A program made the translations under genes and the position numbers. From Heterodontus francisci (lineage: Eukaryota): a DNA stretch of 64,000 nt. The notes beneath the pieces are model-generated. The model was given only the letters and a program-made list of their open reading frames with translations, made no database searches and was not told the origin of the DNA. Shown in pieces: positions 10,430 through 41,672 of the stretch. Location of the stretch: NCBI RefSeq assembly GCF_036365525.1, contig NC_090397.1, forward strand, positions 37,329,679 through 37,393,678. Direction: 5' to 3'. Every line of letters starts with the position of its first letter. Position 1 is the stretch's first letter.

Positions 10430-11040
10430 CACAGAACCATACAACACAGAAGGAGGATATTCAACCCATTGCTTGTGTTTCATCATTACTAAAACAACTC
10501 AAAACTAATGAATTGCCCTATGCTCTGCCCATAACGCTCCATCCTTCTCAGCTTCAAATATTTATCCAATTTTCTCTTAAAAGATGTAATAACTGCTTCA
10601 GTCACTCCTATGGTTAAGCATTTCTCATGCTCCAACAACCATGAGCAAATGAATTTCTTCTAATCTCTCCCCTTAATCGCTTGGTAACAATTCTGAATTG
10701 ATGACCCCCTTGTCACTGACTTCCCAATGAGAGGTGTTTCTTAAAGCCTTCCATTATTTAAAACCTTCATTAAGCCTCCTCTTAGCCTTTCCTGCTCCCG
10801 TGAATATAGTCTTTGTTACTGTAGCTTTCCATCCCTGATATGATCCTGGTCAATCTACACTGTACACTCTCTGGTCTTAATATCCTTTCTACAATAAAGG
10901 TACCCAAAACTGCAGAAGTACTCCAAGTGGCCTAACGAATGATTTGTATAACTTTTTTTGATTGTATTAACTCATATTCTAATTCTCTATTTATAAAAGC
11001 TAAAATGCTGTTTTTAAATGGCTTTAGCTACTTGCAAATT
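10430..11040 (-). mobile_element. Old CR1 3' fragment
   Basis: Degraded similarity to 26600-27250. Confidence 0.55.
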
Positions 11041-39100: not shown

Positions 39101-39324
39101 AGGTACGAACACCCTATTGCTGCAACGACATTCAAGACAGGAAAAGTGTAGATTATGAAGCGCAACTCCTTGTGAGGTAGGAATGAATATAAAAATATGA
39201 AACCGAGTGTCGGGAATAGTAGCCTCCAACTCCTCCGGTCCCTAGCTCCAAAAGGCAGAAAAATTATACTGCAACCAAGAGCACGAGGCAGCACCGAGTA
39301 AAAATACCAGAAAAAGGGTGATGT
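39101..39324 (-). CDS. ALG12: ALG12 coding exon 6 (224 nt), downstream of the U12-type intron
   Basis: TTTAG|ACATCACCC ... |GTAAGT. Translates [17 protein letters not shown]...[29 protein letters not shown]; HKELRF is the GT22-family motif. Confidence 0.95.
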
Positions 39325-40579
39325 CTAAATAGATTCTGAGTCAAGGAAACACAAAAACTTGCAATCTGTTACTTAAGTTATTAAACTCAAAAAAAAAAAT
39401 CTACATTTAAGGAACCAGCAAATAATACTGCAGTTAATATTGTACAAATTTTCAGCCTATCTAATAGAAAATCAATTGAAATTAGTCAAGGATATTGATG
39501 GATTGTCAAGCCCATAGAACTGAATTGATCCTCAAACTTATGAGTCATCTTTTCAAATTTCCTTCCAGAGACAACTTCTAATACTCCAAGGTTAAGCACA
39601 GTATGGATTAGATGCAGAGAAAAGCTCCCTCGTCTCTGTTCCAAAATTTTTTTTCTGGTCCCCCCCAACCCAACCCCACAGGAGGCAGTAGGCAATGTGA
39701 CATTTCCATACTTATGGTTCCTTGGAGGCAGATTGCCAGTGAGTGACAAATTATGGATACTTTTATGTTGTGGATTCATGCCCATTAACAATGATTTCAG
39801 ATGCTTACAGCCAGAAGGCAACGAAGACTTTTGTAACATCAGTCTGTACTGGATTTGAGCCCATACCCTAGAGGTGAAAGGACAGTGTGTTTAATTCATG
39901 GTACTAATTAGTTCCACTTGCATCAGCGTTAAAATGAAACATTTTTTTTGAAAAAGCAATCTGTATCTCAAAGCAGTATGGTACTGAGAAGCAGGCCATT
40001 TTTAAAAATAATTCACATCTTTCTCAACAAATCAGAACCCTACCTTTAGCACACTGATAATTGCAGTGAAACTGCCCTCTTTAGGGATAACATTTACAAT
40101 TATGTTTTCCTGGCTTAGCACCTCACCTGCCAGATGTACATCAGGAATTCTCCATTTGTAGCTCATTTTCTGTCTACTAATTTTAATGGATGAAAAATCA
40201 TGGACTCCAAACACTCAATTCCTAAAATATGCTTCCAGCAGTAGAGACCATGCCAGATGCATGCAATTAGAAAATTTACACGTTATAAAATAATCTTAAA
40301 CTGTGACAAACTTCGTAAACATCGAGTTACCGGCGGGGGTGGGGGTTGTGAAATTCCTACCTTCATTAATTTTTGTGAAATGCTGATGTCAAACAGTACA
40401 AAGTGACTTCTCCCACATAGCTTTAAAATTACTGATGAACATCAAAATCATATTGGAAGCAAGAGCCTGATAATGTTTTTCTCTTGAATCTAATACTGAC
40501 AACAGAGATAATGAATGTCTGGGAGTAATGGTTGAGATGATACACAAGCCCTCACGGTTTACAACCTTCAGTTTATCTT

Positions 40580-41255
40580 TATTCGTTTATGGGATGTGGG
40601 TGCTGCTGCCAGGGCCAGCATTTATTGCCCACCTTTTATTGCCTTTGAGAAGATGGTGCTGATCTGCCTTGAAGTGCTCTAGTCCATGTGGTTAGGTGAA
40701 CCCACAGTGCTGCAATGCTGGGTGGTCCATTTGGTTTTATTCTTAATTGACTTTTTCATAGCGGTTTGATACAACTGAGTGGCTTGGGTCAACCACATTG
40801 CCGTGGGTCTGGAGTTACAGCTGGGTAAGTGTTAATTGTATAGTAATTGAGTATTTAATTATATTCGGGTGGTGTGAATTAACCGGGTATTCACTTGGGC
40901 TCCTATATATAGGAGCAGACTGAAACTTTGGGAGGGAGAGAGTTTTGGAGGTACAGGTTTGTAATGTGTATCTCTAAATAAAATCTTATAAATATTAGGC
41001 GTCAGTTCTATCCTTCACCACCTGACTTTCTGGAATAGAACATTAAGGACAGCAGATTTCCTTCCCCAAAGGACATTAGTGAACCTGATGGATTTTTATG
41101 ACAATCCGTTAGTTTCATGGTCAGCATTCCAGATTGATTTAATTAACTGAATTTTAAATTCCCCAGCTGTCATGGTGGGTTTTGAACTCATGTCTTTGGA
41201 TCATTAATCTGGGTGTCTGGATTATTAGTCCAAGTAACAGAACCACTATGCTATT
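40580..41255 (-). mobile_element. tRNA-headed SINE sharing its 3' tail with the LINE at 30880-30950; related copies at 18975-19245 and 58405-58860
   Basis: Shared blocks gggatgtggg...ccagcatttattgccc, gcagatttccttccc.aaaggacattagtgaacc and tggatta.tagtcca. Confidence 0.75.
40830..41042 (+). mobile_element. Short (213 bp) solo-LTR-like insertion inside the SINE
   Basis: TGTT...AACA termini; internal TATATATA then AATAAA; flanked by GTAAG/TTAAG. Absent from the sister SINE copy at ~58635. Confidence 0.65.
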
Positions 41256-41568
41256 AGGTTTTACTCTTGGACTCACTCTCATTGATTTTTATCTTTATTG
41301 AAAACTGCCATTATGGTGATGCCAACAGCATCAATGTGAGATAACTCTCACACTAATAGATGAACAACTGTAATATTTCATTAATAATCATCAATTGCAT
41401 GGAAATAAGACAATCAGCACATCTCATATGGAGCCGAATATATAGTGGGACTGTTTTTTAAACTATATATTCTCAAAGATGACAATCACAACTAAAATAA
41501 ACATTTTTACTTTTCTGAATTTGCTTTTGAGTTCTTCTATAGTAATCTGAAGGCCGTGTAAAGGATAG

Positions 41569-41672
41569 TCCCCATTTGGAGCTCTTATTCAAGACTGTGT
41601 TGTACCAGAGTACTTCTCCCTCAGGCCATAGGAGACGTCCCCAAAATATCGAATCCACACACACTGTTAGAC
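41569..41672 (-). CDS. ALG12: ALG12 coding exon 5 (104 nt)
   Basis: TTTCAG| acceptor. Translates (G)[34 protein letters not shown] and joins in frame to TSPF of the next exon. Confidence 0.94.

Follow-up and report, generated by a model that had tools for sequence, protein, structure and literature searches.

A CT-AG intron, probably of the minor (U12) class, is exactly removed from shark ALG12 transcripts

Introduction

In human minor introns, changes at position +1 are the commonest disease variants by 5' splice site position (PMC7507305), and loss of CENATAC affects minor introns that start with A and not those that start with G, on a basis described as unexplained (PMC11874965). In the ALG12 gene of Heterodontus francisci, coding intron 5 carries U12-type signals and starts with C. 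Is this base real, is the intron removed at the ends that it marks, and is the C tolerated or regulatory? A sequence-only reading of the locus had left two possibilities, either a very rare natural CT-AG intron that could rate-limit ALG12, or an assembly error or polymorphism. The natural intron is upheld here, whilst neither the error or polymorphism nor the rate limitation has stood up.

The ALG12 gene and its fifth intron

ALG12 lies on the minus strand of the window, the whole stretch of 64,000 nucleotides that was analysed. Nine exons in the window translate exactly to P0001, a 496-aa protein named Heterodontus francisci ALG12 by its source, followed by a stop codon; the gene encodes a full-length, intact mannosyltransferase (PF03901), and exon 6 on its own is a 100% match to P0001. 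A DNA search of the 6-Gb genome with exon 5 matched one place, marking ALG12 as single-copy, and turned up no further copy with an ordinary donor. The features of the gene are as follows.

24663 to 51306, minus strand: ALG12 coding span, nine exons, 496 aa, Pfam PF03901 (translation to P0001)
51306-51142, 51010-50878, 43193-43020, 41970-41776 and 41672-41569, minus strand: exons 1 to 5
39324-39101, 36895-36726, 29798-29723 and 24912-24663, minus strand: exons 6 to 9
41569 to 41672, minus strand: coding exon 5, with K-W-G at its end (one genome match)
39325 to 41568, minus strand: coding intron 5, with U12-type signals (sequence; RNA join 39324/41569)
41560 to 41568, minus strand: 5' splice site CTATCCTTT, with C at +1 and the U12 consensus from +2 to +9 (sequence; same base in organism B)
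39340 to 39349, minus strand: U12 branch box TTTCCTTGAC, with its branch A likely at 39341, at a distance of 16 nt from the exon (predicted U12 duplex)
39325 to 39326, minus strand: AG 3' splice site, the only nearby end that preserves W-G-T-S-P (RNA join; organism B)
39101 to 39324, minus strand: coding exon 6, with T-S-P-F at its start (translation, P0001)

Intron 5 runs from 41568 to 39325 on the minus strand, is 2,244 nt long and in phase 0, and reads CTATCCTTT...TTTCCTTGAC...AG, giving it CT-AG ends. Exon 5 finishes with AAA TGG GGA at 41569 and the intron begins CTATCCTTTACAC, with the C at 41568. The 3' end is TTTCCTTGACTCAGAATCTATTTAG at 39325 (TTTCCTTGAC-TCAGAATCTATTTAG), after which exon 6 starts at 39324 with ACA TCA CCC. 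The gene has eight coding introns, and the seven others are all GT-AG. Only CT..AG and the one-base slide AC..TA reproduce P0001, and both are non-canonical; AT..AC ends can be had by a slide of 2 nt at the cost of changing Thr to Leu. If the intron is retained, 31 codons of read-through are followed by a stop. The sequence-only reading was accurate on all of these points: the letters at 41569/41568 and 39325/39324, the lack of any slide to canonical ends that keeps KWG-TSPF, the stop after 31 read-through codons and the intactness of the other exons.

Two further U12-like motifs lie within intron 5 on the minus strand. One, GTATCCAT (39753-39760), comes directly after a likely cryptic exon described below; the other, ATATCCTTGAC (39485-39495), reads both as a donor and as a branch box and is situated 170 nt before the true acceptor. 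On the plus strand, two ATATCCTT motifs, at 10880 and 44374, are linked to no gene in the window. Multi-copy repeats in intron 5 (40560-41290 and 39520-39935) attract hundreds of contigs.

Transcripts are joined at the CT-AG ends

Eight of 24 listed sequencing runs were examined, all as assembled contigs. That the runs are RNA is a guess, and it is the exon-to-exon joins that show transcript origin. A junction from 41569 to 39324 had been proposed as a check on the intron, and this join, which skips the 2,244 nt from CT to AG with zero shared letters, is present in the contigs of four out of four runs, representing organisms A to D and four studies, at contig depths of 162.9, 50.5, 17.1 and 13.3. 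In two additional runs from organism C, the loose contig end at 41569 consists of the first letters of exon 6. What the contigs of organisms C and D document is the junction, the donor being absent from the contigs of runs X16, X17, X18 and X20. Transcripts with the join encode Thr, and the AT..AC slide is unused. Intron 5 is removed in these transcripts exactly at the CT-AG ends that its motifs define.

The +1 base itself is read as DNA letters in the reference genome and in organism B only, and no displayed contig piece from organism A covers 41568. Over an intron contig of 1,799 nt, organism B and the window disagree at 39 letters and 26 gap positions, so that B is a close but distinct relative, a second species. 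Its contig in run X8 (41056-41598) reaches 30 letters into the exon side and has eight differences, all listed, with none at 41568. Another study of organism B (run X11) provides a contig from 41511 to 41670 with 0 differences, from which the upstream GT-AG intron has already been removed. At the far end, organism B keeps the AG acceptor of intron 5, and only position -3 differs.

Signals of the minor class

The 5' splice site motif TATCCTT is present at +2 to +8, and the branch box TTTCCTTGAC lies near the 3' end with no long pyrimidine tract. Intron 5 lacks the U2-type combination of a GT or GC start with a U1-type donor and a tract of pyrimidines ahead of the AG. The purine at +1 that characterises the GT-AG, AT-AC and RT-RN classes of U12 introns is replaced by C in the reference and in organism B. 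Taken alone the donor motif is not rare, xTATCCTTT occurring at eight sites in 64 kb on both strands; the intron 5 site is taken as real because of the RNA join and because it falls at a known U12 position.

Matches to U11, U6atac and U12 in this genome exceed the Rfam cut-off and have matching pairing boxes. Donor positions +4 to +9 are complementary to its U11 and U6atac, and the duplex of TTTCCTTGAC with its U12 snRNA is predicted at -13.3 kcal/mol. In the unconstrained U11 duplex, C at +1 gives -8.3 kcal/mol, compared with -9.4 for G and -9.3 for A, and is thus weaker by about 1 kcal/mol. The genome as a whole (G000, including L003-L009) has eight U6atac-like matches, three U12-like matches and one U11 match, some with altered pairing boxes. 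The C may also pair with a G just past the donor-binding box of U6atac (-7.6 vs -6.6 kcal/mol; L003-L005, 41556-41572). That G presumably belongs to the catalytic triplex, by analogy with U6, and the pairing with C may not occur.

The earlier claim that the first intron nucleotides are left unpaired by U11 agrees with a review, according to which this holds for the first three bases, which are read by the U11-48K protein (PMC3584512). The same review gives an optimal branch-to-acceptor distance of 11-13 nt, and the 16 nt of intron 5 is above this optimum. A structure preprint reports that only four U11 bases are free to pair and suggests the contact between U12 and the branch site as a driver of recognition (10.1101/2023.12.22.573053). 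CU-AC reporters are spliced correctly but less efficiently (PMC2831892, summarising Dietrich 2005). A +1 G>T change in a human AP4M1 minor intron leads to skipping (PMC7507305), so tolerance at +1 of minor introns is not general. Intron 5 is likely spliced by the minor (U12) spliceosome.

Ancestral state and age of the change

The human ALG12 intron at the equivalent junction is a GT-AG U12 intron (PMC8280824 supplement), in line with the placing of ALG12, in the sequence-only reading, among minor-intron genes. A metagenome scan, in which the U12 donor motif was required and only +1 was left free, returned 59 loci, 58 of which are ALG12 by tblastn (L023 was dropped). G is found at +1 in 58 of 58 of these distant loci, and all 34 with the next exon in reach end in AG; the 57 full-length segments amount to 37-42 distinct sequences. 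Together with the human GT-AG intron, these loci make G the likely ancestral base.

The age of the change can be sought in protein models. Where an annotation slides by 2 nt or reads through the donor, the first two intron bases leave a trace after W-G: Leu for CT or TT, Ile for AT and Val for GT. In a Leu trace, C and T at +1 are indistinguishable, and Val after W-G is sometimes not an intron trace (as in rows with V-Q-P or V-S-P-W). Of 426 ALG12 proteins fetched, 24 without the motif were set aside. Chondrichthyans account for 41 rows, of which 37 carry Thr, which is uninformative, and four carry Leu: Mustelus asterias, Cetorhinus maximus, Heptranchias perlo and Narcine bancroftii, representing three shark orders and one ray order. 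The other 361 rows comprise 323 with Thr, 19 with Val, 16 with Ile and one each with Leu, Phe and Ala. Since the rows are related by kinship, a Fisher test is given no weight. The lone Leu among the 361 belongs to P0280, an unnamed ORF on unspliced sequence that reads W-G-L-S-F, whose exon 5 is identical at 35 of 35 positions to a skate cluster including Leucoraja erinacea. Similarity of its read-through tail to intron 5 is marginal, 34 of 1,000 random windows scoring as high, and is given no weight either.

Leu traces thus come from three further shark orders as well as from an electric ray and a skate. A pyrimidine at +1 likely extends across both branches of sharks and into the rays, and the change likely predates the shark-ray split. 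Sharks and rays separated roughly 250-300 million years ago. Such a span was unforeseen by the earlier reading. Four public shark and ray models (P0004, P0009, P0121 and P0123) have Leu where the transcripts encode Thr, likely through an AT-AC annotation slide.

Ray-finned fish appear to have taken another course. Five sturgeon and paddlefish rows (P0039, P0152, P0161, P0162 and P0261) contain an I-S-F read-through and then T-S-P-F joined after H-Q-E; P0261 has Val in the continuation after H-Q-E. Read-through as I-S-F with the normal acceptor rejoined points to an AT donor and an AG acceptor, so that the intron of these fish would be a mixed AT-AG minor intron, and ray-finned fish likely have A at +1. 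Ile after W-G also occurs in carp, catfish, snakehead, pipefish and one gecko model.

Retention and cryptic splicing

Contigs cover intron 5 in runs X5 and X8, and introns 3 and 4 are without cover. By contig depth, which cannot rank parts of a gene, the unspliced share of intron 5 comes to 13-20% for X5 and to 23-27% for X8. At the intron 5 donor, X16, X17, X18 and X20 have no visible retained contig. The start of the next, ordinary intron is kept in X5 at a depth of 14.7. In run X11, at depth 6, every form seen passes over the CT donor, either by retention or by a cryptic splice that joins 41510 to 40490. The sites concerned are listed below.

41505 to 41510, minus strand: cryptic major-type GT donor 58 nt into intron 5, used when the CT donor is bypassed (X11 branch at 41511)
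40490 to 40491, minus strand: cryptic AG acceptor, spliced in organism B to the donor at 41510 in a product that reaches a stop (30-letter loose end)
39761 to 39867, minus strand: likely cryptic exon of 107 nt with an in-frame stop (X5 contig piece; joins inferred)

The 30-letter loose end of the organism B contig corresponds to window positions 40460-40489. The likely cryptic exon is preceded by a pyrimidine-rich AG at 39868 and followed by the donor-like site GTATCCAT at 39760. An X5 contig ends at 41539. In organism A, the cryptic GT at 41510 is likely spliced to the AG at 39868, which would lead to an early stop.

For comparison, the GT-AG ALG12 intron in human controls has values of 0.107, 0.117 and 0.22 (PMC8280824), and a figure of 8% has also been given (PMC4667643); the human minor intron is retained in Roifman syndrome (PMC4667643). 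There is no sign that the C makes intron 5 a retention outlier, in what is a weak test. The C may cost more in some samples, X11 having donor-bypassing forms only. The suggestion that the C could rate-limit ALG12 is not borne out, the unspliced share of 13-27%, by the weak measure of contig depth, overlapping the 8-22% of the human GT-AG intron.

Alternative explanations

An assembly error or private polymorphism, the other branch of the earlier inference, would draw on the fact that this individual's base at 41568 is known from the assembly and not from reads; four of its own DNA runs include every one of the 51 words sampled, though the assembly may have been built from them. Because the same C is present in a second species, in two independent studies, both are very unlikely, and their chance of being right is close to nil. 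Very little credence can be given either to a true intron of another kind, be it a slid AT-AC intron (W-G-L-S-P), a wrong-strand call, a reverse-transcriptase artefact or an edited donor. A slide of 2 nt does yield AT..AC, Leu occurs in four database ALG12 models, and human CT-AG junctions in one survey (Parada) were mostly classed as non-spliceosomal. Nevertheless, the slid intron is ruled out by an RNA join that has zero ambiguity and encodes Thr. CT-AG is its own reverse complement, so a wrong-strand GT-AG intron is impossible, unlike the case of CT-AC, which is often such an artefact. No direct repeat exists at the intron 5 junction, and the C is read in intron-retaining contigs.

If the C is real, it could still be recent and genus-limited, with Leu elsewhere having another cause, and direct DNA evidence for it does come from organisms A and B only (39 letters and 26 gap positions apart over 1,799). 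This is distinctly improbable in view of Leu in models from Hexanchiformes, Lamniformes, Carcharhiniformes and Torpediniformes, and of a skate-type ORF on unspliced sequence with L-S-F at the place of V-S-F or I-S-F in other animals; a genuine change from Thr to Leu would take two base changes on each occasion. The C might also be a selected throttle, slowed minor splicing, retention and cryptic splicing limiting ALG12 in some tissues. It is likely long conserved, retained and cryptic forms with early stops exist, X11 at its depth of 6 has donor-bypassing forms only, and CU-AC is less efficient in reporters (PMC2831892). On the other side, the crude unspliced share in X5 and X8 overlaps the human GT-AG values, X16, X17, X18 and X20 have none visible at the donor, and X5 also retains the start of an ordinary intron (depth 14.7). 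A throttle thus seems unlikely. Selection of the C-start intron of this core glycosylation gene over the whole history of sharks and rays, whether as a tunable throttle with a cryptic major-type escape splice or through a minor spliceosome adapted to a +1 pyrimidine, is likewise doubtful; were it true, a single AG-ending intron of ALG12 would present G, A and C as a natural series and so reveal how +1 is read.

Proposed explanation and significance

It is highly probable that the ALG12 CT-AG intron is real, exactly spliced and likely of U12 type, and that it likely arose from an ancestral GT-AG minor intron by a change of the first base, fixed before the shark-ray split. The natural CT-AG intron rests on the RNA join in four of four runs, the C in a second species and the GT-AG U12 intron of the human orthologue. 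Intron 5 is best read as a U12 intron with a natural variant at +1 that is old and tolerated. As ray-finned fish seem to accept A together with an AG end, the C most likely reflects tolerance and not regulation.

In such a scheme, U12 would bind the strong branch box TTTCCTTGAC, whilst U11, and then U6atac, would pair with donor positions +4 to +9. With +1 outside the U11 helix, the C would leave the cut site unmoved. The branch point would set the 3' end, at the AG that lies 16 nt from it. A smaller share of transcripts retains intron 5 or uses the cryptic GT 58 nt downstream, with early stops either way.

At this intron, the minor spliceosome can likely dispense with the first-letter rule. 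With C in sharks, G in human and distant eukaryotes and likely A in ray-finned fish, +1 of the ALG12 intron forms a natural series, which may be used for testing what reads this position and which context rescues it. The C-start intron also accounts for erroneous residues in public ALG12 models from sharks and rays.

Comparison with known systems

Intron 5 is a transcript-validated, likely very old minor intron that starts with C and ends with AG. Literature searches, with subscription papers outside their scope, found no earlier description of the shark ALG12 CT-AG intron; six shark, skate and chimaera genus names do not occur in the supplement PDF of Larue and Roy, and the Parada table, with 16 human CTAG rows for 9 junctions, has no U12-like one among them. 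A supplementary tabulation of conserved animal minor introns contains two CT-AG introns (0.003%), 24 CT-AC and two CT-AT, alongside 54,669 GT-AG (74.2%, about 73,700 in total by that share; PMC10639083 supplement). Its CT-AG row has the termini of shark ALG12, and consists of counts only, without gene, species or RNA support; the two introns could be the shark ALG12 introns themselves.

The human ALG12 intron shares with that of the shark the W-G/T-S junction, the donor motif at +2 to +8, the U12 branch box and the AG end. It differs in having G at +1 where the shark has C, in an A in the branch box where the shark has G, and in a length of about 1,300 nt compared with 2,244 nt. Mixed AT-AG and RT-RN U12 introns are also a one-base departure from the usual ends, and are often mis-annotated by sliding (PMC1557818); RT-RN introns keep a purine at +1, however, where shark ALG12 has a pyrimidine. 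The Trappc9 U12 intron of mouse and rat resembles shark ALG12 in its natural CT start, with canonical orthologues elsewhere (PMC2831892). Trappc9 has an AC end and an AT-AC origin, and is known from two rodents (PMC2831892), whilst shark ALG12 has an AG end and a GT-AG ancestor, and its C-start intron likely extends across sharks and rays.
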